From NCBI GenBank assembly GCA_012522735.1, contig JAAYJU010000106.1, positions 34,095-98,094 on the forward strand: a DNA stretch of 64,000 bases, in the 5' to 3' direction. Numbering within the stretch: the first letter of the stretch is position 1; every line of letters starts with the position of its first letter. The notes below the pieces were generated by a model. The model did not search any database. It saw only the letters and a program-made list of their open reading frames with translations, and was not told where the DNA came from. Positions 18,007-36,328 of this stretch are shown here, piece by piece. The translations under genes were made by a program, and so were the position numbers. This stretch comes from Clostridiales bacterium. GTDB taxonomy: Bacteria; Bacillota; Clostridia; Lachnospirales; Lachnospiraceae.

Positions 18007-18867
18007 CTAGCTAATATCATCGAATTCTAGATATGAACAAGGTATATGTGTCTTTCGCTCTTCAATAGGCGGTAATTTCATATAATTACGGTAAATTGAT
18101 CTTAAATACCAGTCATAATTACTGAAGCCAAAGAACAAATGGCCCTCAAACTCATATTCAGATAAATTTTTAAATATTTTTTTTGGAAACCCATAGGGAT
18201 AATCCTTAGGATGAGGAGAACACATGTGAGATATAAGCTCATGTTTCCTTTTATTATTATAATTTGCAATTAATAATTGTGTTTTCATTACGAGGTTTCT
18301 AGGTATCTTTGATAATATAGAATACCACATTCTCATTAATCGATTTGGGTGTACTCTTTTACCAGCTTCTGACCATAGTGTTTTTTGGATGCAATAACTA
18401 GTAAATAAATGTATCCTTCTTAATAATATATTGTCAGGGACCCCATCCATAATAAAGATATCCAAAAACACACCATCTTGAGCTGGTATGTGCTCATATC
18501 CTGCACGAACATATCTTGTGCCTTTTAATAATAATCTAGAATACCCCCATCTGTAATAAGGATCTGTCGTGTAATCCTGAAGGAAAAACCTTTTATGATC
18601 TAGTCCCCCCTTGCTCTTACAAACCATATAAAATCGCTCGTAATCTCTACGTAGTATTACAACATCTGCATCTGTATCCCATGGAATAAAGCCCTTGTGC
18701 CTGACAGCACCCAGTAATGTACCGCCGTCTATTGCATAAGGTATATTATATGCTCTGCAAATACGATCAAATTCCACAAGACAATCTAATATATTGCTTT
18801 GTAATCCTTTGACCTGTTCGTCAGTTAGCTCTATTATACTTATATTACTACGCATTTGATACTTCAT
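18007..18867 (-). CDS. LicD family phosphotransferase (paralogue 1)
   Basis: GGTLLGAVRHKGFIPWDTDAD signature, C-terminal YLRSIYRNYMKLPP.E.R. Confidence 0.9.
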   Translation of the reverse strand: MKYQMRSNISIIELTDEQVKGLQSNILDCLVEFDRICRAYNIPYAIDGGTLLGAVRHKGFIPWDTDADVVILRRDYERFYMVCKSKGGLDHKRFFLQDYTTDPYYRWGYSRLLLKGTRYVRAGYEHIPAQDGVFLDIFIMDGVPDNILLRRIHLFTSYCIQKTLWSEAGKRVHPNRLMRMWYSILSKIPRNLVMKTQLLIANYNNKRKHELISHMCSPHPKDYPYGFPKKIFKNLSEYEFEGHLFFGFSNYDWYLRSIYRNYMKLPPIEERKTHIPCSYLEFDDIS

Positions 18868-18869
18868 TC

Positions 18870-19937
18870 CTATTTACCTTCTAGATTGCATCTCATACTC
18901 TCTATAGTATTTTGTAGCATTTGCTCAAGACCTACCTCAGGTACAAAGCCTAAGCTTAATAATTTGTCAATGCTTAAGACAGCCCTCATTTCTGGATTAT
19001 AGCCTAATTCTTTACTATCGTGATTAATTTCAATTTTTACACCAATTCTGCCCATTGCCATTTTAGTTGCTATTAGCTTGGCCATATCATATATTGATAT
19101 TTCTGTATCAGGATTTGCCACATTATATGCCTCGCCATCTTCTCCTCTAAATAATATAAGAAATAAAGCTTTTGCACAATCTCTGATATAAAGATAATTT
19201 CTTACTGTCCTTCCCTCTGTGTGTAATATTATATCTCTTTCTTCAATTACACATCGTGCAAACTCTGCAAAGACTCGTTTATCATCATAAGCCACACCAG
19301 GTCCAAATGTTTGAGTCAATCTCGCTATTTTTATTGGTAGATTATATTCATATGCATATGAAAAGCATAGATTTTCAGCCATTCTTTTCCCTTCAGAATA
19401 GCTACTCCTTGGAGATGTTATATCTATATACCCATAGTCATTCTCATGTATATATGGTTTATCATCTCGGTGTCTCCCATATATCTCTAATGATGATAAA
19501 TATAAGAATCCATATAATTTTTGTTTTGATGCAAATTGGAGTATATTATTGGTACCTGATACAAGAGAAAGAATAGTTTCAACCGGGTGCTTTATAAAAT
19601 CGCCAGATTGGGTTGTATTAGCCCCATGAATAATATAATCAATATTAGTATCTATCTTAATCTCATCTCTAACATCTCCATATATGAAGTTTAGTTGCTT
19701 CATATCGACATAATCAGCATACATCCTCTCTGCTTTTTCCTTATTACGACAAAGAGCATATACTTTAATGTTATTACGGTTTTCTCTTTCATACTCAAGC
19801 AATACTTTAGTCAAAAAACTTCCAATTAAACCGGTTGATCCAGTTATAAGGAAGGTTCTATTCATTATCTGTGGAAAGCTTTTTAAATAAGCCTTCATAT
19901 TACTTATGTCATTTTCTAAATAGTTTACATTATTCAT
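18870..19937 (-). CDS. NAD-dependent epimerase/dehydratase (extended SDR), probable CDP-ketose reductase
   Basis: FLITGSTGLIGS, YLSSLEIYG, YSEGKRMAE (YxxxK), RLTQTFGPG. Confidence 0.75.
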   Translation of the reverse strand: MNNVNYLENDISNMKAYLKSFPQIMNRTFLITGSTGLIGSFLTKVLLEYERENRNNIKVYALCRNKEKAERMYADYVDMKQLNFIYGDVRDEIKIDTNIDYIIHGANTTQSGDFIKHPVETILSLVSGTNNILQFASKQKLYGFLYLSSLEIYGRHRDDKPYIHENDYGYIDITSPRSSYSEGKRMAENLCFSYAYEYNLPIKIARLTQTFGPGVAYDDKRVFAEFARCVIEERDIILHTEGRTVRNYLYIRDCAKALFLILFRGEDGEAYNVANPDTEISIYDMAKLIATKMAMGRIGVKIEINHDSKELGYNPEMRAVLSIDKLLSLGFVPEVGLEQMLQNTIESMRCNLEGK

Positions 19938-19938
19938 T

Positions 19939-20439
19939 CTAATTCTCCTGTTCTAACCCAACAGAATTAATAGCTTCTGTAATATTTAAAACATTTCCTA
20001 TTTTTTTCTTCAGCTCTTTAGTTACAGAGTCTATATTACCGAAGATTGATATCAGAATCACATCTGCACTAGGCAAATTGTCTTTTAATTTATATACTGG
20101 TAATGAATGATACAAATTATCTGCATTATTATCAATAAAATAAATCACCTCAACATTACTATCTTTAAGAGCATCATAAATAAGATAACCAATCTCTCCC
20201 ATTCCATAGATGGCAATACGATGATAGCCCGATCTCTCCAAATGGTTTGCTAGCGAATATCCAAGCTTATGTATAGCCACCCATTCAAGCATGAAATCAT
20301 ACTTACTTTTATTGAGTTCTATACTCTTATCCTTTTTGTGCTCCTGAACTTTAAGATACCGATTTTTTTTTTGTAAATCAATCACAAAATATGCTTGAAT
20401 AATAATTATTATTATAGTAGTTATAAAAAGATATATCAT
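19939..20439 (-). CDS. Membrane-anchored small Rossmann-like domain protein
   Basis: N-terminal TM helix, coiled linker, then RIAIYGMGEIG..YFIDNN. ATG at 20439 chosen from RBS spacing. Confidence 0.55.
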   Translation of the reverse strand: MIYLFITTIIIIIIQAYFVIDLQKKNRYLKVQEHKKDKSIELNKSKYDFMLEWVAIHKLGYSLANHLERSGYHRIAIYGMGEIGYLIYDALKDSNVEVIYFIDNNADNLYHSLPVYKLKDNLPSADVILISIFGNIDSVTKELKKKIGNVLNITEAINSVGLEQEN

Positions 20440-20456
20440 AGTTATCCCCAACCCTC

Positions 20457-22469
20457 TCAAATTCCAAAATACTCATTATTAGTGAATCCTAATAGTTCTA
20501 ATGCTTGACTAATCTCTTTATAATATTTTGATGAGCTAATTGCAATCTTGGAAAATTCCTGTCTTCTTTCCTTTAGTTGCTCGGGACTCATGACATCCTT
20601 ACCACGATACATAGTACCCCATTTGTTAATATCTGAATCACAGTAGCATAAAACATTACCCTGCTCAGCTTCAATTAGTTCCGTCATAAGCTCTGCATTA
20701 TTTCCCGCCCCATAAACTACATAATTATTACCTGGAATCACAATACCCTTTAAATTCTGTACAGCTTTTCTTAAGGTCGAGTAAAAATCCATTAAAATCT
20801 TAGCATCCATTGCTTTGTCAGTAAACACCTCCATAAATATGGGCTTGTCAGACGCCTCAAATAATAGTGGCATCTGCCTATCAAACTCTTCTTTATTCTT
20901 TACAGAAAGATATCTTATGTTTAAGGATTTGACCCATCCTTTAGCTTTGGTGAAGTGTTCAGCAGCAATAAAATTATCCTTAGTCTCAATAATCCGTGCT
21001 GGATTCCAGTAAAAGGTCTCTCCACCTGCATTGTTGCATAATATAATCCTTACATTGGATCCAACATAGCGATTCCATAAACCATTCATATCATAGAAAA
21101 AGCTCAGGTCACCAATAATCAGAAAAGCAAGTCGATCTTTATCTGCTACTGCCTGTCCTATAAAACTGGATAAACCCCCATCAATTCCTGTTGTACCGCG
21201 GTTCGAATAAACAGTAGTAATAGGATTAATAGAATAGCTCTGTGAAAATCTTACGATTGAATCAATGCCTAGATGAAGAATTGTATTACCTGGTATTTTC
21301 TTCATCATTTGTTGAATTATATAATTATTACTAAAAGGTAGCTCCTGATTAATCAAATGCTCTATTGAAGCTATCTTTGCCTTTATTAAATTATAATACC
21401 CTGCATTTTCTTTAGAATCCTCTGACCTACTATCAAATACATTCTCATTAAAAAATTCAAAGAATTCTCGATTATCTCCCTCAATAACATGTGTCAGCTT
21501 CTGTAAATGATCTATAATTCTGCCTTCCTCATTGACACACCAGTGCTCCATATATCCTGAATAATTTTTTAGGCGCAAACGGAGCTTGGACATATATTGT
21601 CCATTCATTGATATAACGATATCCGGCGCAATCTGTGTAAACTGACTATCTGAAATAACCTCAGACAAAAGGTAGAGGTTGATAGCTTTACTACAATGAA
21701 CATTGGCAATGTTCTCCACTGAAACAACACAATTATATTTCTTGCAGAATTCTTCAATTAATTGTCTCTCTTTGTCATCTACATTATGATTTTGTCCATA
21801 AATAAGTAGAACTCTCTTTTTATAAAGGTGTTTCTGTAATTGTTCTTGCATTGTTCTGTCTAACTTATGTAATACTAATTGTTCTATCTTTTTTACTTCG
21901 GGTAAAGTATCAGCATTAAAGGAAATAAACGGATGCTTTCCAGCACTATCTACAGGAATATTAATATGTACGGGACCTCTACCATTATGATTTAATTCCA
22001 TAAGTGCCTCGTTAATTATTCTCTCACAGTACCAAGCATCACGTGAGTCCTGTACAATAGGAAGTGTCACTTCTTTTTTGCATACTTGATTAAATATACT
22101 ACTTTGGGGTATTTGTTGTTCCTCAAGCTGGAATAACGTATAAGGAGTTTTGTCTGCTGTTATTACAACCAAGGGTATACTCTGATAACAAGCCTCATTT
22201 ACAGCTGCCGAATAATTAACAGATGCTGTACCCGAAGTACAGCATATGCCCACATAGCAATCATGACTTTCCTGTGCCAAGCCCATAGCAAAAAAACCTG
22301 CGCTACGTTCATCGACAATAGAGTAGCATTCGAAGAAATCATCTCTCTCTAAGGAATGAACTATTGGTGAATTTCTTGCTCCTGGAGATAAAACCATTTT
22401 CTTAACTTTATATTTTTTTAGTAGTGCGATTAATATCTGTACATTTTCAATTTCAGAATACATAATCAT
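20457..22469 (-). CDS. MenD-like thiamine-diphosphate enzyme with an appended C-terminal Rossmann-like domain
   Basis: VLSPGARNSP, VDERSAGFFAMGLA, CCTSGTA, NRGTTGIDG, IGDLSFFYDMN, plus an extra ~90 aa tail starting YVVYGAGNN. No other men genes in the window. Confidence 0.8.
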   Translation of the reverse strand: MIMYSEIENVQILIALLKKYKVKKMVLSPGARNSPIVHSLERDDFFECYSIVDERSAGFFAMGLAQESHDCYVGICCTSGTASVNYSAAVNEACYQSIPLVVITADKTPYTLFQLEEQQIPQSSIFNQVCKKEVTLPIVQDSRDAWYCERIINEALMELNHNGRGPVHINIPVDSAGKHPFISFNADTLPEVKKIEQLVLHKLDRTMQEQLQKHLYKKRVLLIYGQNHNVDDKERQLIEEFCKKYNCVVSVENIANVHCSKAINLYLLSEVISDSQFTQIAPDIVISMNGQYMSKLRLRLKNYSGYMEHWCVNEEGRIIDHLQKLTHVIEGDNREFFEFFNENVFDSRSEDSKENAGYYNLIKAKIASIEHLINQELPFSNNYIIQQMMKKIPGNTILHLGIDSIVRFSQSYSINPITTVYSNRGTTGIDGGLSSFIGQAVADKDRLAFLIIGDLSFFYDMNGLWNRYVGSNVRIILCNNAGGETFYWNPARIIETKDNFIAAEHFTKAKGWVKSLNIRYLSVKNKEEFDRQMPLLFEASDKPIFMEVFTDKAMDAKILMDFYSTLRKAVQNLKGIVIPGNNYVVYGAGNNAELMTELIEAEQGNVLCYCDSDINKWGTMYRGKDVMSPEQLKERRQEFSKIAISSSKYYKEISQALELLGFTNNEYFGI

Positions 22470-23890
22470 TCCTCCTGATATTCAATAATCTCACTTACAT
22501 CGTAGTCCATGCATAGATAGGACTCCATATTGAGAAGTACCTTTTTCTTTGATTTTTCTCTGGCTTGATTATATACAGATGTATAATTATTTCGACTTAA
22601 CACAATAATAAAATCAACCTCTTGCCAACAGTCCTCATAATTACATATCTTTTGCTCGTTCTCTACTAAATCACCCCAGAGCAAAGGATCTCTATCAATA
22701 ATATGATCTAACTCTAATTGGTTTTCTGCTAATACTGGATATAGTGCTCTAAGATACTTCCCAGCTCCCCACACAGCTACTTTGTATTGATTCTCTTTAA
22801 TATAATCAAATAACCTTTTTATTCTATCAATACAGAATTTATACTTCAATTTCATATATTTTTGAATATAATCTCTCCCTTTATGTGACATTATAAAATC
22901 TTCTCTTTCTCCACGCCACGATGATATATCTTGTGCATTATAAACAATCTGATTTAAGATATCTATATAAAAGAAATTAGCACTCCTTCCTATGTACTGA
23001 AGATTATCAGGATCTGCTCCCAAAGCAATAAAATGATTATTTACATTTATTATGGTTTTTATCGGAAGATCATCTACATAGTTTAGATAATAACTCATGA
23101 TTCTAATCCAATATTTTAACATCCAATGGTTACATTCCTGAGGATATTTATCAAAGTAATCATTATTTTTTAAAAAATCTGCCAAACTAAAAACAGACTG
23201 TGTTAAATTGTTGATTTTATTACAATCTATATTATGTAAGGTTGAATCCTCATTAATGTTGTTATAGTAATAAAAGGCTTCCCTAACATATTCTATTCTA
23301 TAAGCCTCTAGATACCATCTTAATACAATAGCTGTATCTTCAAAAAAAATGTTTTCTGGAAAGAATAGTTGATGCTCTGTTATAAAATCCTTTCTTATAA
23401 TATTGCTCCAGCAATATGCCTTGTACATTAGAATAATGCCACGTGTCTTCGTGTCATCTATAACTCCAGTAAGCTTATGTTCATAGGCAGCAAGATATTT
23501 ATGGGCATTAGTATTCACATCTATCATATAATAATCGCACATAACGATATCAGCGCTAGTATGTTCTGCCTTTTCATATAGCCTTCTACATGTGTCTAAA
23601 TCAATATAATCATCACTATCTACAAATTTGATGTATTTACCTCTAGCTTTTCGTATACCAACATTTCTGGCTCCCCCCTGACGCATATTTTTGTCCAAAA
23701 ATATTCCTATTACCTTGTCAGGATATTTCGATACATATTCTCTAATTATTAAATGAGAATTATCAGGGGATTTGTCATCTACGACGATGATTTCTATTTC
23801 CTGTAGCGTCTGATTAACACAGGAGTCTAAGCATTGACGTAGTGTTTTTTCTACATTATATACAGGGATTATTATGCTGACTTTTATCAT
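22466..23890 (-). CDS. Glycosyltransferase family 2 with C-terminal Rossmann-like tail
   Basis: VSIIIPVYNVEK, VDDKSPD, GGARNVG, FVDSDDY, FFEDT; tail KVAVWGAGK. Confidence 0.88.
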   Translation of the reverse strand: MIKVSIIIPVYNVEKTLRQCLDSCVNQTLQEIEIIVVDDKSPDNSHLIIREYVSKYPDKVIGIFLDKNMRQGGARNVGIRKARGKYIKFVDSDDYIDLDTCRRLYEKAEHTSADIVMCDYYMIDVNTNAHKYLAAYEHKLTGVIDDTKTRGIILMYKAYCWSNIIRKDFITEHQLFFPENIFFEDTAIVLRWYLEAYRIEYVREAFYYYNNINEDSTLHNIDCNKINNLTQSVFSLADFLKNNDYFDKYPQECNHWMLKYWIRIMSYYLNYVDDLPIKTIINVNNHFIALGADPDNLQYIGRSANFFYIDILNQIVYNAQDISSWRGEREDFIMSHKGRDYIQKYMKLKYKFCIDRIKRLFDYIKENQYKVAVWGAGKYLRALYPVLAENQLELDHIIDRDPLLWGDLVENEQKICNYEDCWQEVDFIIVLSRNNYTSVYNQAREKSKKKVLLNMESYLCMDYDVSEIIEYQEE

Positions 23891-25368
23891 GTAATTGAAC
23901 CTCCGGCTAATTTAGGAGCTAACACTTGCTCCATATTTATGTTATATTTGTTGAGATTTAGTATTATATCCTCAAACGAATTACTTGCTATTACTATATA
24001 GTTAAATAATTTCTCATTATACTTTAAATCCTGAACTGAAAAGACTGGTTTTCCCTGGCATAGGGTACCTGCTTTCTCCATATCTGAATCACAGTATCCA
24101 ATAACAACTCCCTCTCTTTGCAGTATATAGTTTGTAACCTTTAATCCATTCTTTCCAGTTCCATATACTATATATTTTCCATCTCTTTTAACATCAAAAT
24201 CATCAGAAAATCTATCAGAGCGAAAATTATAGGATATCTCTTCAAGATACCTTCGAATCGGAAGATATTGCGGACATGCCTTCTCACATTTTCCGCATTT
24301 TATACAGTCAGATGCATGACCTGAGTTTGTTATTATAGTATTATATAAAGAAATATGTCGTCCCTTATGTATCCTATCTGTATCAACTTTTTTTTGCATA
24401 GAATTATATATATGAAACAACTCAGGAATTCTTATATTCTTCGGGCACTCCTTCACACAATACAAGCAAGCAGTACATTGTATTTTATAATATGAGTTAA
24501 TCATATCCACAATTTGACTTATTAGCTCTTGCTCTTCCTGCGATAAAGGCTTGAATTCAGTCATAATATTGACATTATCCTGTAATTGAGCAATATTTGA
24601 CATGCCGCTTAATACCATTTCTACCCCTGGTAACGATGCTACATAACGAAGTGCTAAAGAGACCGGAGACTCTTTCCTATCCAAGGATTTAATTTTTTCT
24701 TCAACATTATTAGGAACATTAGCTAAAGCTCCACCCTTAATCGGCTCCATAACAAATATAGTCTTATTATGCTTACGGGCTATCTCATAGCATTTTCTTG
24801 ATTGAATGTGTGGACTTTCCCAATCTAGGTAATTAAGCTGTAGCTGTACAAAATCGACATCAGGATACTTTATCAAAACCTGGTCTAAAAGATCAGCATT
24901 ATCATGAAATGAAAAACCTATACTTTTGGCATATCCTCTGCCCTTTAAGCTGCTGACAAATTCAAATAATTCATGGCTTACCATATCATCATAAACTGTA
25001 CCATTTACATTATGGATATAATATATATCAAAATAATCAACCCCACACCTTATTAGCTGCTCCATAAAGAATTGTTCATAACCACCCTTTTTTATTGCAA
25101 TATGATGAGTCATTTTATCGGCTAATATATATTGATTCCTTTGATACCTTGTGGTTAAACACTCATGAATAGCTATTTCAGACATCCCGTTATGGTATGG
25201 ATATGCTGTCTCAAAGTAATTAAATCCATTCTCAATAAATAGGTCGGTCATTCTTGATACTTCATCATAATTAATATCCTTTATACTTGAACCATGTAGC
25301 GGCAATCTCATAAAGCCAAAGCCTAACTTCTTCTTAAAAAAATTGCTTAAATTATTCATTTGCTCCAC
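23887..25368 (-). CDS. Aldo/keto reductase with 4Fe-4S dicluster and Rossmann-like tail
   Basis: LGFGFMRLP, YFETAYPYH, VMEPIKGG, VLSGMS, CTACLYC..CP and CIKCGKCEKACP; tail YIVYGTGKNG. Confidence 0.88.
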   Translation of the reverse strand: MEQMNNLSNFFKKKLGFGFMRLPLHGSSIKDINYDEVSRMTDLFIENGFNYFETAYPYHNGMSEIAIHECLTTRYQRNQYILADKMTHHIAIKKGGYEQFFMEQLIRCGVDYFDIYYIHNVNGTVYDDMVSHELFEFVSSLKGRGYAKSIGFSFHDNADLLDQVLIKYPDVDFVQLQLNYLDWESPHIQSRKCYEIARKHNKTIFVMEPIKGGALANVPNNVEEKIKSLDRKESPVSLALRYVASLPGVEMVLSGMSNIAQLQDNVNIMTEFKPLSQEEQELISQIVDMINSYYKIQCTACLYCVKECPKNIRIPELFHIYNSMQKKVDTDRIHKGRHISLYNTIITNSGHASDCIKCGKCEKACPQYLPIRRYLEEISYNFRSDRFSDDFDVKRDGKYIVYGTGKNGLKVTNYILQREGVVIGYCDSDMEKAGTLCQGKPVFSVQDLKYNEKLFNYIVIASNSFEDIILNLNKYNINMEQVLAPKLAGGSIT

Positions 25369-25371
25369 CTT

Positions 25372-26469
25372 TTAATATGTTTCCATAACCTGGTCAATAG
25401 ATTTCTTAAGAATGCTAATAGAATGATTACGTTTTTTCTCTATTAATGGTCTAACACTAGTATAATCAACCTGATAATCGCTTATCTTATCACAATCACC
25501 TATTGTAATCATCCTATCCTCTAATCCTGTTTCTACCAATATAGTCTTAATTCTGCTTATATTTTTATTACTGATTACTGAATAAAAAGGAATACCCAGA
25601 TTAATTGAAAAGGCAGTACCATGAAAGGAGGTGGTAATAACTAAGGAAGCATGCTGTATATATGCAACAAAATCCAAGGGACCGGCATCATGAATATATT
25701 CCAGATTACACTCTTTATAAATATCCTTTAGGGAAATAACCTTTAATGCAAGATGAAACTTTTTAGCCATCATTTTGGCAATTGATAACCCTCCCTCGAC
25801 ATATCCTACTTCATAATATAATAGATATGGCTTGTGTGTACATTCATTATTACTACACCACTCATCCTTAGATATTAAAAAGGTTGGATCCTCTACTTGG
25901 CCTATATCCATACCCAGAAGACTTCCAACCATCTCTGCTCCCGACTTTTCTCTCATAAATATGTAATCATATTGCTTCATAAAGTCTATATAGGGCATTA
26001 ATTTGCTCCTGTTACTAGATCCCATACTTGGCGCATAAGCAATACGATGCTTTATTTGCGGATAAGGCATAAAATAAAAGTCTGAATACCAACCATTTCC
26101 TCTAAAATCAAGATTCCAAATTTGATCACTTCCTGTTATCACAATATCATAAGACTTGATCTCCTCACTATTCTCAAACTCCTTAGAGGTGAGAAAAGCA
26201 TGCTTGCTTAAGTTTAGTTCGTTCTCAATAAACTCTTGAAATTTCTGATATCGAATTATATTATAATTGGCCGTTTTCTTATAAATTTGGTTCTGAATTT
26301 TTGTCGGATCATAAGCATCTCTGTGTTTTTGAGTAGCAAAATCAATAATCTCGCATTCATACCCAAGCTTTTTAATCGTTTTTTGAAGAGCATAGGCTTG
26401 TAGTACGGCACCATAATTAACAGGTCTATGAAAGGTTGCTATGCCAATTTTTATATTGCCTTTGTCCAT
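25372..26469 (-). CDS. Polysaccharide pyruvyl transferase family protein (WcaK/CsaB-like)
   Basis: NYGAVLQAYAL, ITGSDQIWN, YAPSMG, MRE..G, DPTFL, VITTSFHGTAFSI. Confidence 0.85.
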   Translation of the reverse strand: MDKGNIKIGIATFHRPVNYGAVLQAYALQKTIKKLGYECEIIDFATQKHRDAYDPTKIQNQIYKKTANYNIIRYQKFQEFIENELNLSKHAFLTSKEFENSEEIKSYDIVITGSDQIWNLDFRGNGWYSDFYFMPYPQIKHRIAYAPSMGSSNRSKLMPYIDFMKQYDYIFMREKSGAEMVGSLLGMDIGQVEDPTFLISKDEWCSNNECTHKPYLLYYEVGYVEGGLSIAKMMAKKFHLALKVISLKDIYKECNLEYIHDAGPLDFVAYIQHASLVITTSFHGTAFSINLGIPFYSVISNKNISRIKTILVETGLEDRMITIGDCDKISDYQVDYTSVRPLIEKKRNHSISILKKSIDQVMETY

Positions 26470-26510
26470 AATACTTGTCCTTCCCCTTTATTTTTGTGGC
26501 TTATGAATGG

Positions 26511-27803: not shown

Positions 27804-27815
27804 TTCGCTTGCCTC

Positions 27816-28754: not shown

Positions 28755-28789
28755 GATTTACTCCCGTTTTAATTAATGATATATAATAG

Positions 28790-29515
28790 TCATATCCCAT
28801 AAATCTGAGAACCTTCTTTGGCTTCATAAATTGCCTTAAAAATGTAATAATCATAAGCTGTTGTTATCTTGATATTTTCTTCAAGGCACTCTACTGTATG
28901 TAGTTCATACCCATAGGACTGCATCAGCTCTACTGAATCAATAATACGCTCTTTCCCATCCGCTAAAGCTCTATTATGAACCTCCCAAATATCCTTAACA
29001 AAAAAACTCTGAGGAGCTCGTGCTATAGATAGAGTGTTTCTTTTGTATACTTCACTAATAGTATTGTTATCTTCATCGGTACGTATAATGCTCTCTTTGG
29101 CAGGAACAACCGTGATACCTGATCCATACTTTCTAACAGACCTAATATTATCAGAAATAAGCTTTTCCGAAACAAATGGGCGAACTCCATCATGTATCAG
29201 CACAATATCTTCTTCTGATTTCGATTGATTATGTACTACTTTGATTCCATTATATATTGAACCCTGACCAGTATTTGCTCCTGGAATTACTGAACTTACT
29301 TTTGTAATATTAAAACGTCTAATTTGTTCCCATAATGTATTTATCCAATCATCAATGCACACAACAACAATATTATCGATTTCTTCATGGTATTCAAAAT
29401 TCTCTATTGTATAGATTAGTATTGATTTACCATGTAGCTCTAAGAATTGCTTTGGCTTAGTCTTACTATTCATTCTTTGCCCTGTTCCACCCGCAAATAT
29501 CATGGCAGTAACCAT
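28790..29515 (-). CDS. IspD/TarI family cytidylyltransferase
   Basis: IFAGGTGQRM..PKQFL, LIHDGVRP, APQSF, ENIKITT..D. Confidence 0.9.
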   Translation of the reverse strand: MVTAMIFAGGTGQRMNSKTKPKQFLELHGKSILIYTIENFEYHEEIDNIVVVCIDDWINTLWEQIRRFNITKVSSVIPGANTGQGSIYNGIKVVHNQSKSEEDIVLIHDGVRPFVSEKLISDNIRSVRKYGSGITVVPAKESIIRTDEDNNTISEVYKRNTLSIARAPQSFFVKDIWEVHNRALADGKERIIDSVELMQSYGYELHTVECLEENIKITTAYDYYIFKAIYEAKEGSQIYGI

Positions 29516-30991
29516 TTAGCCATCCTCCTTCATTAACGCTTCTATAACTCGCTTTCCAGCATTTCCATCTATATTCAACACATTGCCTTTCAAACTCTCT
29601 ATTCGTTGCTGTTTCTCATAGTCCTCATCATTTAAGATCATATCGCAGAAATTTTTCATAGTAAAACCATCAAAACGATAGTATGCGATACTCTCATCGA
29701 ATGTAGGAATGCATTTGCGAAAATACTCTCTTTTTCCCCTGATAAACAAAACAGGCTTTCCCGTAATCATGTATTGTCTGGTCCACGAACTCATATCAGA
29801 TATCATTCCATCAGATGCTACAGTTGCGATTTTATTATCAGCAAACTCATCAATAATCGCACCCTTTGATTTAATGCTCTCGATATTACTTTTGTATTGC
29901 ACCATCCATTCACTACGCATCCTCTTAATAGTTGATTCGAATAGTGGGTGAGGTCGCCAGATCAAAGTAATACCCTCTTGTGATGCTAAAAAATTAAGAG
30001 TCTTTGTTAGAAAGTCCATATAAGTTTTAAATTTTAGCATATGTCCGATACTTGTATTTATAATGATAACCTTATTATTTCCTATCTTTTCCTTCCACTC
30101 CTTAGGTATTTCTATTCCTTTATAATCCAAATTAACATAAGCATCAAATTTCGGCGAACCACTAAGTATTAGCTTGTCAGCATTAATTCCAATTTTAATG
30201 TAAAGATCATATTGCTCTTTAGATTGTGTTACTATCTTATCTACCAAAAGTAAGCTTGGGACTAAGATTTTATTATTGAAGGCTTCTGCATCCAAATACA
30301 TACCAGATATAAAATACGGACTATAGATAACCATCTCTGATACTTCCTTAAGATTTTTAACATAGTAATCAGGATCAATTGTAGTAACATTATTGAATTG
30401 ATCGTATGGATTGTGTATAAATGTAAAATCCGGATGGAGCTGTCTTAAATCTATCTGCTCCCACGATGTAATTGGTACATAATCAGGAAAATCCATACCA
30501 TCATAATGCATATTCCCTATTGATCCATCTGGATTTTTATCATAATAAGGAATAGGCATCACATAACATTCACAACCTTCGTAATCCTTTGCAGCATTCC
30601 AGATACTCTCTAAACTGTCCCACATACTTGCTTGATAGGGTAGAAATAGACATACTACCTTTTCTGGTATTTCATTCTTTATCTGAGAGTATATCTGTAT
30701 AATAAATCTAGACAATTTCTTATTAATCTTTAACTTCTCTTGCCTATTTTCTTCCTGAGAACACAGCCATACCAGCTCACAATATGTCTCTAATTTCTTA
30801 ACAATCGGATGGTTTTCTCCTTCCGATTGCTCTACCTCGTTACCTATTTGGATTGCACTTTCCTGCATTACTTGTAGCATATCATATAATTGCTGTGCAT
30901 TATATATATCAATTACCTTGTCAATGGTCTTATGAGCATTTTCCATGGTCTTTATTATGCTTAGTATTTGTTGTTTGATATATCTCCTCAT
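29516..30991 (-). CDS. CDP-glycerol glycerophosphotransferase (TagF)-like protein with helical N-terminal domain
   Basis: FLPYQASMWDSLESI, FIHNPYD, GSPKFD, IWRPHPL, MISDMSS. Confidence 0.6.
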   Translation of the reverse strand: MRRYIKQQILSIIKTMENAHKTIDKVIDIYNAQQLYDMLQVMQESAIQIGNEVEQSEGENHPIVKKLETYCELVWLCSQEENRQEKLKINKKLSRFIIQIYSQIKNEIPEKVVCLFLPYQASMWDSLESIWNAAKDYEGCECYVMPIPYYDKNPDGSIGNMHYDGMDFPDYVPITSWEQIDLRQLHPDFTFIHNPYDQFNNVTTIDPDYYVKNLKEVSEMVIYSPYFISGMYLDAEAFNNKILVPSLLLVDKIVTQSKEQYDLYIKIGINADKLILSGSPKFDAYVNLDYKGIEIPKEWKEKIGNNKVIIINTSIGHMLKFKTYMDFLTKTLNFLASQEGITLIWRPHPLFESTIKRMRSEWMVQYKSNIESIKSKGAIIDEFADNKIATVASDGMISDMSSWTRQYMITGKPVLFIRGKREYFRKCIPTFDESIAYYRFDGFTMKNFCDMILNDEDYEKQQRIESLKGNVLNIDGNAGKRVIEALMKEDG

Positions 30992-31033
30992 TCAGACCTC
31001 CCAATAAAAACTGTTGTCGTGGTTAATAATAAA

Positions 31034-32092
31034 TTAAGTATTGTCTCTCAGCCTCACCAATGCTGGCTCATAATCTCCACACTTATTATAATAAGTCTTC
31101 GCTTTATCCACTAATCCGAGGCATTCATATATCACTCCAATATTATAGTATGCCCTGTAGCTATTTACACCGTCCATCTTATGGAACTTCATCTTGGTAG
31201 CCTTGATAAATTCATCAATGGCCTCTGTAAACTTTGCATTGTTCATATATATTAGACCCATCAGATATACAAAATCAGCACTTATGGCAAATTCATCGTA
31301 TACACCTAGTAGCTGCATAGATTTCTCATACTGTTTAGAGTTAATAAGTGCATAACCGTAGCTCTCTACCATATCCTGAACATACTCTAGCCTAATATCC
31401 AGATCAAAATATAAGGCCTTGTCAAACCAACTACAGGCGGCTTCATAATCCTCCTGCATATAAAAAGATTTACCTAATTGATAAAGTATATAAGGGTCAT
31501 CCCCATCATCCTCAAGCTGCTGTAAAAGAATTGTAATATTTCTGTTTGTCTTTTTTTTTCTTGTCTCTAAGTCTCCATCATAACCTCTATGATCAACCTC
31601 CACCGGTATATCATAATAATAGCTTTCCAAATCTTTGATTGGACCAGGCTGTTCATGTATTTTCCCTTTATATTCATATAAATCCTTAGAGAATAGCCTA
31701 CCTACCCGGTTATTGATTCGGAAGGTTTCTCCGTCCCTTATAAAGCTATTCTTCTGAACAAGTCTACCAACACCATCCGGGTTTTCTCTGATAAGTCTCT
31801 CCAGCTCATCCTTATCAAAATAATCAGCTACTTCGTCGCTATCTATTACAAGTACATACTTATTAGTTGCCTTACTAACACTATAATTTCTAGCTGCAGA
31901 AAAATCCTGTCTCCAGATATAATCATAGACCTTATCGGTATATTTCTTGGCAATCTGCTTTGTATTATCAGTTGAACCAGTATCTACTACTATTACTTCA
32001 TAGCCTAATGGTAGTAATGGTTCTAGACATTGTCCCAATTGTTCTTCTGAATTCTTTACAATCATACATATTGAAATCATTATACTACCCAT
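31034..32092 (-). CDS. GT2 glycosyltransferase with TPR repeats (candidate flagellin O-glycosyltransferase)
   Basis: ISICMIVKN, VDTGSTD, DFSAARN, IDSDE, IHEQP, then TPR-like YQLGKSFY, YLMGLIYM and YNIGVIYE. Confidence 0.85.
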   Translation of the reverse strand: MGSIMISICMIVKNSEEQLGQCLEPLLPLGYEVIVVDTGSTDNTKQIAKKYTDKVYDYIWRQDFSAARNYSVSKATNKYVLVIDSDEVADYFDKDELERLIRENPDGVGRLVQKNSFIRDGETFRINNRVGRLFSKDLYEYKGKIHEQPGPIKDLESYYYDIPVEVDHRGYDGDLETRKKKTNRNITILLQQLEDDGDDPYILYQLGKSFYMQEDYEAACSWFDKALYFDLDIRLEYVQDMVESYGYALINSKQYEKSMQLLGVYDEFAISADFVYLMGLIYMNNAKFTEAIDEFIKATKMKFHKMDGVNSYRAYYNIGVIYECLGLVDKAKTYYNKCGDYEPALVRLRDNT

Positions 32093-32135
32093 ATCTTTCT
32101 TTACTCTAACGTGCTTTACGCCAATAGTGCTACAG

Positions 32136-32816
32136 TTATTTGTTCAGTTCTCTTTGCTTCATTAATTCCTCTACAATAAGCCAATCACTAATCTCGTCAA
32201 TTTCAAAATAAGTTTCTTCATTCATTTCTACAGCTACTATTCTTCCTGATATCCTACATCTATTCTCTAATAATAATTTCTTTGAAGTAATATAGAAAGC
32301 ACCATTTTCAACTAAGTAGCCATCAAATTCTTGGCGCCTTGGTCTTGAAAAAATATCATAATTCTGGGGCTTTACATATCCACCTTGATTATTCCAAATA
32401 AATCTTTTCTGTCTTACTACAGATAAAACACTATCTACATCATCCTTGTAATATTCCTCAATTCCCTTGCATAGATCCTCAGCAGAAAGTAAGGGTGAGG
32501 TTGCTTGTATCAATATGATATCATCGAAATCATATTGCTCGGCAAACTCTAGCATAACACTCTCTGTACTAGCTGTGTCTGTTGCATTTTCCGGATCTCT
32601 TCCTATAACTCTGACATTCTCAAATCCAAAGCTATTAACTGTATCTGAAATCTTCTGACTATCCGTAGCAACATAAACTTTATCGATCCCAGAGCAATTA
32701 TGTGCTGCAAGAACCGTCCAATATACCAAAGGCTTACCATTAATAATTCTTATGTTTTTTAGTGGTATCGATTTACTTCCACCTCGAATTGGGATAAACG
32801 CTACCATATTTTTCAT
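32136..32816 (-). CDS. neuA: Acylneuraminate/ulosonic acid cytidylyltransferase (NeuA family)
   Basis: FIPIRGGSKSIPLKNI, VATDS, IQATSPL, ENGAFY, EIDE..D. Confidence 0.88.
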   Translation of the reverse strand: MKNMVAFIPIRGGSKSIPLKNIRIINGKPLVYWTVLAAHNCSGIDKVYVATDSQKISDTVNSFGFENVRVIGRDPENATDTASTESVMLEFAEQYDFDDIILIQATSPLLSAEDLCKGIEEYYKDDVDSVLSVVRQKRFIWNNQGGYVKPQNYDIFSRPRRQEFDGYLVENGAFYITSKKLLLENRCRISGRIVAVEMNEETYFEIDEISDWLIVEELMKQRELNK

Positions 32817-32840
32817 ACTATTACCTCATAATTATGAAAT

Positions 32841-33722
32841 TTATATTCTGTATTTTAACTTATCTCTTTGCTCTTGCTCTATAGGCAATATTTCATTAGA
32901 TTTATATGATAAACTCTCATATGTAGCCAGTAAATTTCTTTTTAGTCTACGTATACCATCCGGCTCTAAGGATGCTGCATGATCAGTACCCTTCCATGTC
33001 CTATCTAAAGTAAAATGCCTTTCTATCACAGAAGCTCCAAGAGTGTATGCCGCAATATCAATCGCAAACCCATTATGATGTCCTGAAAATCCGATTTGCT
33101 TAACCATTGATCCATATGTATTAACCAGCCTGGTTATTTCTAAAAGACATACATCCTTAAATGGAACAGGATAACCAGAGGTACATGAATATAATACTAA
33201 ATCCTTATTTCTGCCCTTAGATTCAAATAATCTCACAATCTTTTCTTCTTCTTCTCTTGTAGTCATTCCAACCGATATATGTATTTCTCCCTCAAAATTA
33301 TCACATAGCCAAGATAGCATGTTGAAATGATTGTTGCAAGCACTAGGTATTTTAATCATTTTCGGGTTAAATGCTACGATTTCTTTGGCTGAAGTCATGT
33401 CCCAAACAGATGTCGAATACTCAATTCCAATTTCCTTGCATTTTTCATATAATTCCTTATGTTGCTCAGCATTAAACTCCAAGAACTCTCTATGCTCGCC
33501 ATATGTAGTCCCATATGAATTATGAGGATTAGGATGAGGTGCATTATATTGTTCAGGCGTTAATAATTCGACGTTATTTCTTTTCTGAAACTTAACCACA
33601 TCAGCATCACAAAAGATTTTTGCCATTTTTATCATCTCTACTGCAATATCTAAATCTCCTTTGTGATTACATCCAATCTCAGCAATAACCTTTGGGGATT
33701 TATATTCTAACGTTTTATTCAT
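32841..33722 (-). CDS. neuB: NeuB-family PEP-dependent ulosonic acid synthase lacking the C-terminal SAF/antifreeze domain
   Basis: IAEIGCNHKGD, ADVVKFQKR, IKIPSA, CTSGYP, GFSGH, IERHFTLDR..GTDHAASLEP. Ends just after the TIM barrel. ATG at 33722 chosen from RBS (ORF track 33731). Confidence 0.85.
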   Translation of the reverse strand: MNKTLEYKSPKVIAEIGCNHKGDLDIAVEMIKMAKIFCDADVVKFQKRNNVELLTPEQYNAPHPNPHNSYGTTYGEHREFLEFNAEQHKELYEKCKEIGIEYSTSVWDMTSAKEIVAFNPKMIKIPSACNNHFNMLSWLCDNFEGEIHISVGMTTREEEEKIVRLFESKGRNKDLVLYSCTSGYPVPFKDVCLLEITRLVNTYGSMVKQIGFSGHHNGFAIDIAAYTLGASVIERHFTLDRTWKGTDHAASLEPDGIRRLKRNLLATYESLSYKSNEILPIEQEQRDKLKYRI

Positions 33723-33736
33723 ACAAACCACCTTTC

Positions 33737-34114
33737 TTATCCAAAATATTTATATAGCATTTCCAATGACAACATTCTATCATCCACATAATAATCTGCA
33801 TTTGGTTTTCCAAAGTGGAGCTCATGATACTTTAGTTCCCATCTAGACATCTGGTCTTTCGTAACAGAAGACCAATCTATCCCAGTAACATAGCCTCTTG
33901 CAGTAAATAACACTATATAATTACCCATATCATATAACTTGTTTATTATATTAATCATAGGTATGTTAGGCTCAGCCAGCTCATAGTTATTATCCTTAGC
34001 TTGATTTGCTATTACCCCATCTATATCAAACACAAATCTTCTACCACCATGTGAGATGTTCATATAGTCTTCTTTAATCTTATTTTCTAGGTGTTTAGAA
34101 TAATCTATATTCAT
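33737..34114 (-). CDS. Small HAD-superfamily phosphatase (capsule-biosynthesis phosphatase type)
   Basis: VFDIDGVI (DxD), LFTARG, GKP.ADYYVDD. Confidence 0.8.
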   Translation of the reverse strand: MNIDYSKHLENKIKEDYMNISHGGRRFVFDIDGVIANQAKDNNYELAEPNIPMINIINKLYDMGNYIVLFTARGYVTGIDWSSVTKDQMSRWELKYHELHFGKPNADYYVDDRMLSLEMLYKYFG

Positions 34115-34134
34115 TCAAGTCTCCTTAATATAAA

Positions 34135-35973
34135 TTAATTACCACTTATTTCTTTATAGTTATCAATTGTTTCCAGCAATGCCTGTTTAATAAATTTGGA
34201 TGTATCAATTGTAGCCTGATATATTATTTTAGACTTCTGGAATGTGCTCAGATTGTAATCCTCCGAATCGTCAGATAGAATCAACATTTCTGAAAGTTGA
34301 GGGGCAGTTTGAGCAGTAATATGATAATCCATAAGTGGATATATACTCTGCTCCTCTATAAACTTATTTACCTTACTTAGCTTCCTTAATGCTTCATTTA
34401 GTTTTTTGCTTGACAAGCCTCTTTCATATTCCCTAATAACATTATTACATTTTCTAATTGCAGACTCCGCTTCATCTAATATACTGTTCATAATAGGCAC
34501 ATAGCCTTCAAGATAATCTATTATTTTCCCAATGTCCTTCCTGTAAAAGATTGGTTCAATGTTAAACAAATCCTCATTTTCCATATGTATTTCTCTACAA
34601 TACCTAGCAACTGCTTCTTTTAGAGGCATTACAATAGTCCCCTTTATTCTAGCTCCCCTCTCCTTTGCATCTATTACCTCTATATCGTTATTTAAAGCTA
34701 TTAAGTCCTGATATCTATTCACAAATTCCTTCCAATCAACTCTTGATTTTATCATACTGCCATCAATGCCCTCTACCATAACATTGGCTTCTTCTCCTTT
34801 ATTGTTAATTTCACCTCCGACATGGCTGACATTTCCATTAAAAGCAAGATCCTGTCCAACTAATATCACTCTCTTATATCCCAGTTCTACACAAGCAGTA
34901 TATGCAACAATTGCAACTGATCCACTAGTAGTAATTTCAGATGCTTCCTTATTAACCAAATCATATATTCCATTCAGGAAGGGATTACTTGTACAGAATA
35001 TTTTTTTTCCAATATGACGACTTAATATATCATTATTAGCTTCCATAGTACATATTAAAGGAATATTAACATCATCTCTTCGTGAAAAATGAATTAGTTC
35101 CTTTACAGGGTCAATTGTAACAGTGAAATCCGGTTCTAATCCATAGTCCAAAAGATAATCTAGAACCCGGTCACAAGCAAATATAACTGCTTTACCCTTA
35201 GCCTTTTTTAGTTCTTCAATATTTTCTTCAACTGAAGGCCCTGCTGCTACTACTATGGCAGGCACTTCTTTTGGTGTATATTTTTTTAATTCTTTTAAGT
35301 TGCTTGAATCAATTAAATAAGTCAAATTTTTAAATATATTTTGTATATATTTTTCACTAAGCTTTATTGTCGTATTAATATTTAAAGTATTAGATACTAG
35401 GCCTTCTTTAATCTCATTAAAAAAAGTTATACAGCTTTCTGCAAATATCTTATCATAATTAGGATAAATACATTGAATTTGCGACTTCATATTTGTGATA
35501 TTGATTGCACTTTTAACTGTAATATGAAAAGAGAAATCGTTAGCTCCTTCAACTGCAATCACAACTCTTTTATCCGATAGTATTTCTGATAGATCATAAT
35601 TCTTAATTACATGGCTAAAAATATCATAGCTCGGCTCATATATGATTAGTAAGTGACTTTCTTCCATTTTCCTTAATAATGCTCTAGCAAAGATTCCATT
35701 GCCAAGACCGTACATTGAAACAACTGTATTAATGTTTTGTAAGGTAAATTGGTCACTCCATCTTATTGCTTCTTCAATTGGTCTATAGATACTATTCAGT
35801 CTATATGTCATTGCCTTATAGGTAATCGAAACAATCTTCTCTCCATCCTTGGCATAAATAGTCTCTATATTATCTAATCTATTAGTATAATTATTATCAT
35901 TATTTATAAGATTTTTGTATAAATAACTGTGATTATTTTCTATCAATTCCATGTTTTTATTATAAAAGGTCAT
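34135..35973 (-). CDS. maf: Motility-associated factor (Maf, DUF115) flagellin glycosyltransferase
   Basis: PAIVVAAGPSV..NI, VTIDP, GSVA..A..LG..RVILVGQDLAF; located just downstream of fliC. Confidence 0.88.
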   Translation of the reverse strand: MTFYNKNMELIENNHSYLYKNLINNDNNYTNRLDNIETIYAKDGEKIVSITYKAMTYRLNSIYRPIEEAIRWSDQFTLQNINTVVSMYGLGNGIFARALLRKMEESHLLIIYEPSYDIFSHVIKNYDLSEILSDKRVVIAVEGANDFSFHITVKSAINITNMKSQIQCIYPNYDKIFAESCITFFNEIKEGLVSNTLNINTTIKLSEKYIQNIFKNLTYLIDSSNLKELKKYTPKEVPAIVVAAGPSVEENIEELKKAKGKAVIFACDRVLDYLLDYGLEPDFTVTIDPVKELIHFSRRDDVNIPLICTMEANNDILSRHIGKKIFCTSNPFLNGIYDLVNKEASEITTSGSVAIVAYTACVELGYKRVILVGQDLAFNGNVSHVGGEINNKGEEANVMVEGIDGSMIKSRVDWKEFVNRYQDLIALNNDIEVIDAKERGARIKGTIVMPLKEAVARYCREIHMENEDLFNIEPIFYRKDIGKIIDYLEGYVPIMNSILDEAESAIRKCNNVIREYERGLSSKKLNEALRKLSKVNKFIEEQSIYPLMDYHITAQTAPQLSEMLILSDDSEDYNLSTFQKSKIIYQATIDTSKFIKQALLETIDNYKEISGN

Positions 35974-36010
35974 AGCTTTATACTCCCTATTAGCTTCATA
36001 TTTTCCTTAA

Positions 36011-36328
36011 TTATAATATATCAGCATTAATAGCCTCAGTAAATAGCTCCTTCAACTCATATTCAAAGATATCAGAAAAAAGGATTGTATCGCCTATTTC
36101 CAAGGCCTTCATAGCTTGCATTAATATTTCATTCAATTTTACTTGATCTACTATTGTTTCATCTCCATTTTGTGCTTGATCAGATATGGCACTAGTAGTA
36201 TTGTTCAATACTATTAGTGTATTTTCTAGCTCCTTATACCCTTCTTCTGTTTTGTTTTGATAAAATAAATTTGTTACTTTACTAATCGCTTCAATCGCTT
36301 CTTTTAGATTTTTCTTAATCATATTCAT
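36011..36328 (-). CDS. Small helical hypothetical protein of the flagellar glycosylation locus
   Basis: 105 aa amphipathic helices; DTILFSDIFEYEL motif shared with the N-terminus of 15012-15920. Confidence 0.65.
   Translation of the reverse strand: MNMIKKNLKEAIEAISKVTNLFYQNKTEEGYKELENTLIVLNNTTSAISDQAQNGDETIVDQVKLNEILMQAMKALEIGDTILFSDIFEYELKELFTEAINADIL

Follow-up and report, generated by a model that had tools for sequence, protein, structure and literature searches.

The window analysed here is a stretch of 64,000 nucleotides from a Clostridiales bacterium of the family Lachnospiraceae (contig JAAYJU010000106.1), in which an island of genes predicted to glycosylate flagellin lies directly downstream of the flagellin gene fliC. 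The source contig measures 113.7 kb, and the assembly (2.82 Mb in 259 contigs) is 92% complete. The island occupies positions 18007 to 36328 of the window and starts 67 bp after fliC. Its 17 open reading frames are all encoded on the minus strand with spacings of -4 to 43 bp, as the first-pass annotation had indicated in calling them co-oriented and tightly packed, and the gene families that it had named were all recovered with Pfam and NCBIfam. Of the three start/stop overlaps it had listed, two are true ATGA overlaps (22466-22469 and 23887-23890); the third (20457-20460) has the sequence TTGA and holds only if a TTG start is accepted that no clear ribosome-binding site precedes. The gene block that it delimited is real, but the functional unit is wider and includes the frame genes at 15012-17868. 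The genes form three cassettes, the first of which is built around a Maf protein:

36011-36328, minus strand: sm105, 105 amino acids (aa), four-helix model beside Maf; candidate GlfM-type specificity factor
34135-35973, minus strand: Maf612, without tetratricopeptide repeats (TPR); MptE-like (DUF115) domain PF01973, 133.2 bits against a cut-off of 34.6
33737-34114, minus strand: HAD125, small phosphatase of the haloacid dehalogenase (HAD) type; TIGR01689 9.6e-5, PDB 9iqw 8.6e-10
32841-33731, minus strand: short NeuB, 296 aa, no SAF domain; NeuB domain 223 bits
32136-32816, minus strand: CMP-ulosonate synthetase; CTP_transf_3, PseF/KdsB-like but under the cut-offs of both

The second cassette is headed by a glycosyltransferase of family GT2 carrying TPR repeats (GT2-TPR), followed by enzymes of alditol-phosphate and pyruvate transfer:

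31034-32092, minus strand: GT2TPR, 352 aa; Pfam GT2 and TPR_1/2/8, GmaR-like; candidate second initiating transferase
29516-30991, minus strand: TagF491, CDP-alcohol phosphotransferase of the TagF family; PF04464 26.9 bits against a cut-off of 22.1
28790-29515, minus strand: TarI cytidylyltransferase; NF001183 (D-ribitol-5-phosphate cytidylyltransferase) 186.6 bits against a cut-off of 166
27816-28754, minus strand: LicD2; LicD domain 128.6 bits
26511-27803, minus strand: Pyr430; PS_pyruv_trans domain, 48-53% identical to its Brevibacillus and L158 counterparts
18870-19937, minus strand: SDR355; Epimerase and short-chain dehydrogenase/reductase (SDR) domains, putative reductase for the alditol phosphate
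18007-18867, minus strand: LicD1; LicD family, 44% identical paralogue of LicD2

Between Pyr430 and the SDR/LicD1 pair lies the third cassette, a five-gene block that is absent from the otherwise colinear cassette of metagenomic contig L158:

19939-26469, minus strand: inserted tailoring block as a whole
25372-26469, minus strand: Pyr365 pyruvyltransferase; PS_pyruv_trans
23887-25368, minus strand: AKR_FeS, aldo-keto reductase (AKR) with two 4Fe-4S clusters, by Pfam and NCBIfam
22466-23890, minus strand: GT2_474, GT2 glycosyltransferase, by Pfam and NCBIfam
20457-22469, minus strand: MenD-clade thiamine diphosphate (ThDP) enzyme, 670 aa; TIGR00173 256.2 bits against a cut-off of 244.2
19939-20460, minus strand: Ross173, 173 aa, N-terminal membrane anchor; weak PglD_N match, 2.7e-4

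Enzymes of the three cassettes

Maf612 is predicted to be a flagellin ulosonic-acid transferase, as it also matches a PseD-domain model (1.7e-32) and the Maf structure 5mu5 (1.5e-5), and it has no TPR match. Approximately 400 bp separate maf from fliC, and the HAD, NeuB, and CMP-synthetase genes come next, in an order that is syntenic in the genus. The NeuB protein scores under both the NeuB and the PseI equivalog cut-offs, with PDB matches to PseI, NeuB, and SpsE between 1e-23 and 1e-20. Genome-wide, a single NeuB, a single CMP-synthetase, and a single Maf were detected. No Epimerase_2 enzyme (NeuC/LegG) was found in the 92%-complete genome, where DegT-type aminotransferases gave only weak partial matches (<=46.6 bits), and pseudaminic acid (Pse), legionaminic acid (Leg), and N-acetylneuraminic acid (Neu5Ac) were rejected as Maf donors on these grounds. 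Fusion of the CMP-synthetase to a HAD phosphatase was observed in two separate lineages: in Anaeromicropila the partner is a HAD125-like domain (and NeuB is fused to a cupin isomerase-like domain), and in the rumen-type Lachnospiraceae flagellin island L080 it is a Cof-type HAD. The single NeuB/CMP-synthetase/Maf set, the missing Epimerase_2 and DegT enzymes, and the HAD fusions together point to a phosphorylated ulosonate that is dephosphorylated before CMP activation, presumably by HAD125, and the sugar of this route would seem to be an ulosonic acid of the Kdn type, with a sugar phosphate as its precursor. Similarly, routes of the Kdn-9-P and Neu5Ac-9-P type bring together a synthase, a dedicated phosphatase, and a cytidylyltransferase, as do the three adjacent genes here. 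The L080 island (15881-20459) has the same short NeuB (72% identical), together with Rpe, TarI, and a TarJ-type dehydrogenase, which amount to a complete CDP-ribitol route.

The small protein encoded between fliC and maf, sm105, was modelled with AlphaFold2 as four helices (predicted local distance difference test score, pLDDT, of 93). Three of its residues are invariant (D80, D86, and Y90), the latter two being located in the last helix (helix 4), and relatives of sm105 adjoin Maf in 15 of 80 related loci.

In the second cassette, the best solved relative of GT2TPR is the GmaR protein of Listeria (1.3e-31), followed by the SunS peptide glycosyltransferase, and the DSDE/DADE region is conserved. 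TagF491 falls in a family with more than 6000 members, which carry the annotation CDP-glycerol glycerophosphotransferase, and it has no sequence match among solved structures; its relatives lie one or two genes downstream of a flagellin and GT2(-TPR) pair in all four contexts examined. The product of TarI would be a CDP-alditol, probably CDP-ribitol. The partner of TarI here is an SDR and not a TarJ-type dehydrogenase. An SDR355-type gene adjoins IspD/TarI in L155 and L157 and accompanies TarI in L158, L160, and several Lachnospiraceae loci; since the two genes are co-inherited in at least six loci, SDR355 probably makes the alditol phosphate. For LicD2 the sole PDB match is FKRP (2.8e-5), and LicD1 is 56-67% identical to LicD proteins encoded in flagellar loci of Brevibacillus, C. 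chromiireducens, and L158.

The same set of GT2-TPR, TagF, IspD, LicD, pyruvyltransferase, and SDR genes follows flagellin genes in Brevibacillus sp. TJ4, in Clostridium chromiireducens, and on contig L158. The order in Brevibacillus is flagellin, GT2-TPR, Pyr, TagF, Pyr, LicD, IspD, SDR, GT2, flaG, fliD, and fliS, and L158 shows a run of TagF, IspD, LicD, Pyr, LicD, and SDR that is almost the order of the window. An ‘Epulopiscium’ metagenome-assembled genome retains only the GT2-TPR and TagF part of the cassette. Identities between the window and L158 reach 78% for TarI, 65-67% for LicD (65% for LicD2), 55% for SDR, 53% for Pyr430, and 51% for TagF, against just 37% for FlgK and 60% for flagellin.

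The ThDP enzyme of the inserted block scores above the MenD equivalog cut-off, and its closest PDB match is MenD (6e-42, against 1e-10 for acetolactate synthases). MenB, which was detected in 11 of 14 controls, was not found in this genome; on account of this absence and of the glycan-locus contexts, a role in menaquinone synthesis was rejected. Homologues of the MenD-like protein (34-48% identity) occur in 10 of the 300 genera surveyed (see below), and in five of seven contexts they adjoin a Pyr365-like pyruvyltransferase, one context being a classical Wzx/Wzy locus. Other contexts show triads ordered either Pyr, MenD-like, AKR or Pyr, AKR, MenD-like. The best database matches (52% identity over the full length) are single polypeptides of 1046 aa that join AKR_FeS to the MenD-like enzyme, encoded in two metagenomic flagellar loci:

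L159, 8200-11340: AKR and MenD-like fusion, 1046 aa
L160, 8789-11926: AKR and MenD-like fusion, 1046 aa

Both fusion genes sit between fliW/csrA and GT2-TPR, in loci that also encode IspD, a TagF-like protein, an SDR, and a pyruvyltransferase fusion, and after them C2185-like_N, ferredoxin, FrhB_FdhB_C, and pyruvyltransferase domains are joined in one protein. Because its members are fused and recur as triads, the ThDP/AKR/pyruvyltransferase module that the first-pass annotation had proposed is a genuine functional and evolutionary unit, which appears to be used on surface polysaccharides and in flagellar loci alike. AKR_FeS and the MenD-like enzyme of the window have, in addition, a common C-terminal module of approximately 100 aa (42% identity):

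20460-20765, minus strand: copy of the GxG...CDSD module overlapping the MenD-like gene
23890-24213, minus strand: copy overlapping the AKR_FeS gene

The module is weakly PglD_N-like and bears the database tag PF22674 (C2185-like_N); hmmscan of the C-terminal pieces from the window did not recover PF22674, though the database tag lists it on the MenD-like protein of the window. In L159 and L160 the same tag is found on the ThDP enzyme, AKR, GT2, GT8, methyltransferases, and a pyruvyltransferase. The proposal of one Rossmann-like module on four enzymes of the window was confirmed only for AKR_FeS and the MenD-like enzyme, the support for Ross173 being weak. Hydrophobic segments in the island amount to two, the N-terminal anchor of Ross173 and a weak one in Pyr430 at residues 393-411.

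Conserved frame and variable interior

The named relatives, identified via Maf, are Clostridia of the Lachnospiraceae type (Anaerocolumna, Mobilitalea, Herbinix, Mobilisporobacter, and Anaeromicropila). The frame of the island was compared among the window, four genomes of the same genus whose contigs include both edges, and G341, the closest relative found; a further contig of the genus (G013) stops short of the distal edge. The upstream order flgK, flgL, fliW, flaG, fliD, fliS, flgN, fliC (approximately 272 aa), the 105-aa protein, and Maf is conserved, and so is the distal order that follows the variable interior, which consists of a secreted 640-aa protein, a 302-aa truncated Maf, and lspA. 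The two distal proteins are encoded at the following positions:

15946-17868, minus strand: SbsC640, secreted protein of 640 aa with signal peptide; S-l_SbsC_C domain 1.9e-11
15012-15920, minus strand: MafN302, 302 aa, beside lspA; Maf_flag10_N domain, no catalytic MptE-like domain

The fliC-to-lspA interval ranges from approximately 14 to 40 kb over the six clade genomes and differs in interior content; where the island sits, and the pair of genes at either edge, are therefore vertical and conserved, and the changing part is the interior. The earlier view of the locus as an exchangeable, flagellin-linked glycan locus thus applies to the interior; position and proximal half are conserved in relatives, which is in part the outcome that the first-pass annotation, in suggesting this comparison, had named as one that would speak against it. 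The relative G341 retains only the fliC-proximal half; of the second cassette it has in common with the window only GT2TPR (73% identity), TarI (approximately 50%), and TagF (41%). In G341 the stretch from LicD1 to about TarI is replaced, no LicD, pyruvyltransferase, AKR, or MenD-like gene is present, and DNA similarity to the window is absent over approximately 18000-30400. This pattern of replacement provides the strongest evidence for cassette exchange.

SbsC640 occupies an identical position in all six clade genomes whose distal edge was captured (40-65% identity), and its role is probably not glycan synthesis. MafN302 is conserved adjoining lspA (approximately 50-66% identity), and its N-terminus, a GlfM-like four-helix domain that precedes the Maf N-domain, is homologous to the sm105 family (probability 82.8%, E 9e-6 in an hhalign comparison of the families). 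Relatives of approximately 560 aa carry an sm105-like domain fused to a complete Maf with its catalytic domain, and MafN302 could be an adaptor, a decoy, or a conserved remnant. In one genome of the same genus, whose island measures 40 kb, the Maf orthologue (G008:C32:152522-154348, locus L002; 55% identical) is broken by two TAA stops and is possibly a pseudogene.

The island has a GC content of 33.3%, compared with 37.3% for the genome, 39.2% for the left flank, and 36.9% for the right flank, and it is the minimum among 427 sliding genome windows of 18.3 kb (mean 37.2%, standard deviation 1.4). GC at third codon positions falls at or below the 15th genome percentile in 12 of the 14 island genes of at least 200 aa. 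The AT-richness previously judged by eye is therefore borne out by the sliding-window check, though it is modest in size. Low GC is no evidence of recent import, because maf, a conserved gene that is syntenic and part of the core, has one of the lowest GC values in the island (31.1%) and is as AT-rich as the variable genes; other glycan loci of the genome (contigs C47 and C17) have low GC as well, and composition as proof of recent import was rejected. The per-codon likelihood against genome codon usage was uninformative, the score merely favouring AT-ending codons.

Signals that may govern transcription were located as follows:

36346-36372, minus strand: terminator-like hairpin between fliC and the island, GGACTGAC / GTCAGTCC and then a T run, read from the sequence
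37314-37339, 40809-40835, 45879-45901, 55011-55036, and 23060-23085, all minus strand: sigma-D/sigma-28-like motif, including sites upstream of fliC and flaG

The sigma-D-like motif (TAAA-N13-17-CCGATA) had seven matches against 0.78 expected. Near the island it matches only upstream of fliC (37314-37339) and inside GT2_474; from the latter site, transcription of the distal genes could start. A scan for sigma-70-type promoters over 14000-33900, which covers most of the island, the frame genes, and lspA, gave matches at chance level.

The presumed acceptor and a second flagellin of the genome are:

36396-37214, minus strand: fliC, 272 aa; Flagellin_N and Flagellin_C domains, sigma-D-like match at 37314-37339
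contig C237, 695-2302, plus strand: second flagellin, 535 aa, with a large central domain; FliS-like gene next to it, outside the main flagellar locus

The FliC protein had been singled out as very short, but its length is ordinary in the clade, in whose members 58 distinct flagellins of 260-290 aa were found. A profile over these sequences identified segment 141-200 as the least conserved, and Ser/Thr account for 17 of its 60 residues.

In a survey of both transferases over 300 sampled genera of the bacterial family, homologues of GT2-TPR were present in 56, often as tandem arrays, and Maf in 62. Both were found in 16 genera, within 40 kb on one contig in approximately 11, and 46 of the 62 Maf-bearing genomes have no GT2-TPR. 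In 7 of 29 loci, some of them in Maf-less genomes, at most 1.5 kb separates the GT2-TPR orthologue from a flagellin gene; Maf-less genomes with a GT2-TPR adjacent to fliC are G198, G058, G049, G128, and G159. Both families thus look autonomous, in agreement with the earlier designation of Maf and GT2-TPR as two initiating families. Their presence in one island stands, but its unusualness had been overstated, considering the approximately 11 of 300 genera and C. sporogenes (PMC13317340). Orthologues of GT2-TPR form tandem arrays of three to five copies in several Lachnospiraceae genera (G124, G293, G128, and G148), which suggests diversification by site or sugar.

Two putative initiators and rival readings

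We consider it probable that the locus, composed of three cassettes, serves the O-glycosylation of flagellin in the cytoplasm as one of the hypervariable islands of Clostridia and Bacilli, most likely building two separately initiated glycans. Gene content, synteny, modularity, gene fusions, and the absence of export genes were observed directly, whereas the substrates, the order of the steps, and the number of glycans (two or one) are inferred. Cytoplasmic flagellin glycosylation is favoured over synthesis of a wall polymer since no export or priming genes are present and each cassette occurs in flagellar loci elsewhere. In other genomes either transferase is found by flagellin without its counterpart, and therefore two separately initiated glycans are the most economical solution.

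The target would be Ser/Thr residues of the short central segment of flagellin, modified before export. In the Maf route, the short NeuB would condense phosphoenolpyruvate with a sugar phosphate, for which mannose-6-phosphate is the leading guess, to give a product of the Kdn-9-P type; HAD125 would strip the phosphate, the cytidylyltransferase would form the CMP-sugar, and the TPR-less Maf would transfer the sugar to flagellin, aided by sm105 as a GlfM-like adaptor. In the second route, GT2-TPR would dock on flagellin and add a first hexose or N-acetylhexosamine, SDR355 and TarI would supply the CDP-alditol (probably CDP-ribitol), and TagF491, LicD1, and LicD2 would attach alditol-phosphate by phosphodiester bonds, on the same principle as in the Type A pathway of C. 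difficile, with Pyr430 contributing a pyruvate-derived group. The inserted block, acting in this second route or on its sugar donor, may provide one further sugar whose additional acidic side chain would come from a keto acid, a step in which Pyr365, the Fe-S AKR, GT2_474, and the MenD-clade ThDP enzyme would take part.

Several observations weigh against this reading of the locus. Between fliC and the island stands the intrinsic-terminator-like hairpin, and the 67 bp that lie between the two contain no recognised promoter, so that transcription of the island would need read-through past the hairpin or an unrecognised promoter. The fold search with sm105 gave only generic or designed four-helix bundles (E >0.1), FliS and FliT not being recovered, and the candidate likeness to GlfM was drawn from the published description of that protein. 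The MenD-like/pyruvyltransferase/reductase triad also inhabits Wzx/Wzy polysaccharide loci. The 535-aa flagellin on contig C237 is a further possible target for one of the routes. Finally, GT2TPR measures 352 aa, compared with 643-758 aa for the flagellin-adjacent GT2-TPRs of Brevibacillus, ‘Epulopiscium’, and L158, which are only 24-36% identical to it, and in Brevibacillus a look-alike of 356 aa is encoded at the far end of the cassette. Given this contrast in length and position, GT2TPR could be an elongating and not an initiating transferase.

The latter possibility leads to the alternative that survives best, in which Maf alone initiates one composite glycan, GT2-TPR elongates it with its repeats just keeping hold of flagellin, and the remaining enzymes decorate the same chain. 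Besides the small size of GT2TPR, half that of its flagellin-adjacent counterparts, the packing of the 17 genes as if in one operon is consistent with such a chain, as is the position of GT2-TPR directly after the CMP-synthetase gene here and in the nearest relative. However, GT2-TPR genes stand beside fliC in the five Maf-less genomes named above, most Maf-bearing genomes lack GT2-TPR, the alditol-phosphate cassette occurs without Maf in Brevibacillus, C. chromiireducens, and L158, and the GT2 domain is nearest to that of GmaR, an initiating O-GlcNAc transferase. Two initiators are clearly preferred on this balance, and a composite chain is judged unlikely.

It is less likely still that the two routes have two acceptors, one acting on the 272-aa FliC and the other on a hook-associated protein or on the 535-aa flagellin of contig C237, which could be the target of one route and has its own FliS-like neighbour. 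TPR domains and GlfM have been published as setting acceptor specificity (bioRxiv 10.1101/2023.12.03.569772), which would suit such a division; however, both transferases are encoded directly downstream of the 272-aa fliC, and most relatives with one system keep that system by the short flagellin. That the distal genes (LicD, TagF-like, TarI, pyruvyltransferases, and MenD-like) build or modify a pyruvylated or teichoic-acid-like wall polymer, perhaps anchoring SbsC640, and are merely lodged by the flagellin locus is very improbable. In favour of it, the families are classically those of wall-polymer enzymes, the pair of MenD-like enzyme and pyruvyltransferase is found in Wzx/Wzy loci of other genera, and the next gene downstream codes for a secreted protein that has an S-layer SbsC domain; against it, Pfam and NCBIfam detected no priming phosphoglycosyl transferase, flippase (Wzx), polymerase (Wzy), ABC exporter, or LCP ligase in the interval, the enzyme set lies between flagellin and flaG/fliD in Brevibacillus and after flagellin in three other lineages, and the AKR/MenD-like fusion of L159 and L160 sits between fliW/csrA and GT2-TPR.

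A more specific proposal can be made, which we regard as possible but doubtful in its two parts taken together. In the first part, the GT2-TPR cassette, widespread by flagellin genes of Bacilli and Clostridia, would use its two LicD paralogues and the TagF-like enzyme to place ribitol-phosphate on a protein O-glycan, and would thereby be a counterpart in bacteria of ISPD, fukutin, and FKRP acting on dystroglycan. In the second, the triad would perform an undescribed glycan-tailoring reaction: the pyruvyltransferase would install an enolpyruvyl ether, the MenD-clade enzyme would add to it an acyl anion that stems from a keto acid, by a Stetter-type 1,4-addition such as MenD carries out with isochorismate, and the Fe-S AKR would reduce the ketone, so that a hydroxy-acid side chain of a new, ether-linked kind is formed. 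For the PglD_N/C2185-like module that the two enzymes share, the proposed task is to bind the nucleotide part of the sugar donor.

Relation to known systems and significance

Hypervariable flagellin glycosylation islands are already known as a type. In C. difficile Type A, genes for the transferase CD0240, the cytidylyltransferase CD0242, and the TagF-like phosphotransferase CD0244 lie downstream of fliC, and a CDP-activated alcohol is joined to the first sugar through a phosphodiester, the group being N-methyl-threonine (PMC10714395). The contiguous GT2TPR, TagF491, and TarI genes after fliC resemble this arrangement. The activated group here is predicted, from TarI and the SDR, to be an alditol; no counterparts of CD0241 (ThrH-like, phosphothreonine-forming) or CD0243 (N-methyltransferase) were found with Pfam and NCBIfam among the 17 genes, and the two LicD proteins, the pyruvyltransferases, and the ThDP and AKR enzymes are additional to the Type A set. 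By this comparison, the island appears to work like the Type A pathway but is not a member of it.

GmaR of Listeria monocytogenes is approximately twice as long as GT2TPR and doubles as the MogR anti-repressor. In this O-GlcNAc transferase (PDB 22ao) the GT2 domain is followed by TPR repeats, as in GT2TPR. On the side of the ulosonic-acid route, GlfM, part of a tripartite system of flagellin sialylation in Shewanella oneidensis and Kurthia, is a small cis-encoded factor that allows a TPR-less Maf-2 to bind flagellin (bioRxiv 10.1101/2023.12.03.569772). The window likewise combines a TPR-less Maf with a small soluble four-helix bundle, with a conserved acidic residue in the last helix, in a flagellar ulosonic-acid locus; it differs in that sm105 is encoded upstream of maf and has 105 aa, whereas GlfM is usually encoded downstream and has 89 aa, and in that the sugar does not appear to be Pse or Leg.

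The island of C. sporogenes NCIMB 10696, with one maf and two GT2-TPR genes, has been predicted to build two glycans (PMC13317340). Variable cassettes within the flagellin locus are common to the Clostridium (PMC13317340) and Geobacillus islands and to the present one, but those carry Pse, Leg, or deoxyhexose pathways, and LicD, ribitol, and pyruvyl groups are not mentioned in PMC13317340. No paper was found in the open-access literature that links flagellin glycosylation to LicD, joins it to Kdn, Maf, and a phosphatase, or describes a flagellin-locus cassette of GT2-TPR, TagF, TarI, LicD, pyruvyltransferase, and SDR; for flagellin glycosylation and a ThDP enzyme, the matches in the same literature concerned the Maf domain itself and did not link the two.

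The likeness to the modification of alpha-dystroglycan by ISPD, fukutin, and FKRP lies in the combination of an IspD-family CDP-ribitol synthase with two LicD-family paralogues acting on a protein O-glycan. It differs in that the similarity to FKRP is one short stretch (2.8e-5), the alditol and the acceptor are predictions here, and a TagF-like enzyme is added. The ThDP enzyme resembles MenD (SEPHCHC synthase) in its equivalog-level score and its closest solved structure, but it is encoded in glycan loci, is fused to an Fe-S AKR elsewhere, and carries the extra C-terminal PglD_N/C2185-like module.

Flagellin glycans affect filament assembly, motility, and recognition by hosts, phages, and antibodies, and in flagellins reduced to the D0/D1 domains the glycan forms most of the exposed surface. 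The teichoic-acid-like cassette is a recurrent, transferable module of flagellin loci in two classes of Firmicutes. The MenD-clade carboligase and the Fe-S reductase appear as a conserved, at times fused, glycan-tailoring unit whose chemistry is undescribed. Cultured carriers of the cassettes include Brevibacillus sp. TJ4, Clostridium chromiireducens, and Anaeromicropila herbilytica, and the main value of the island is as a pointer to candidate chemistry in cultured organisms. If the proposed reactions are true, the enzyme activities would be new, and bacteria would have a parallel to the ribitol-phosphate glycosylation of mammals.

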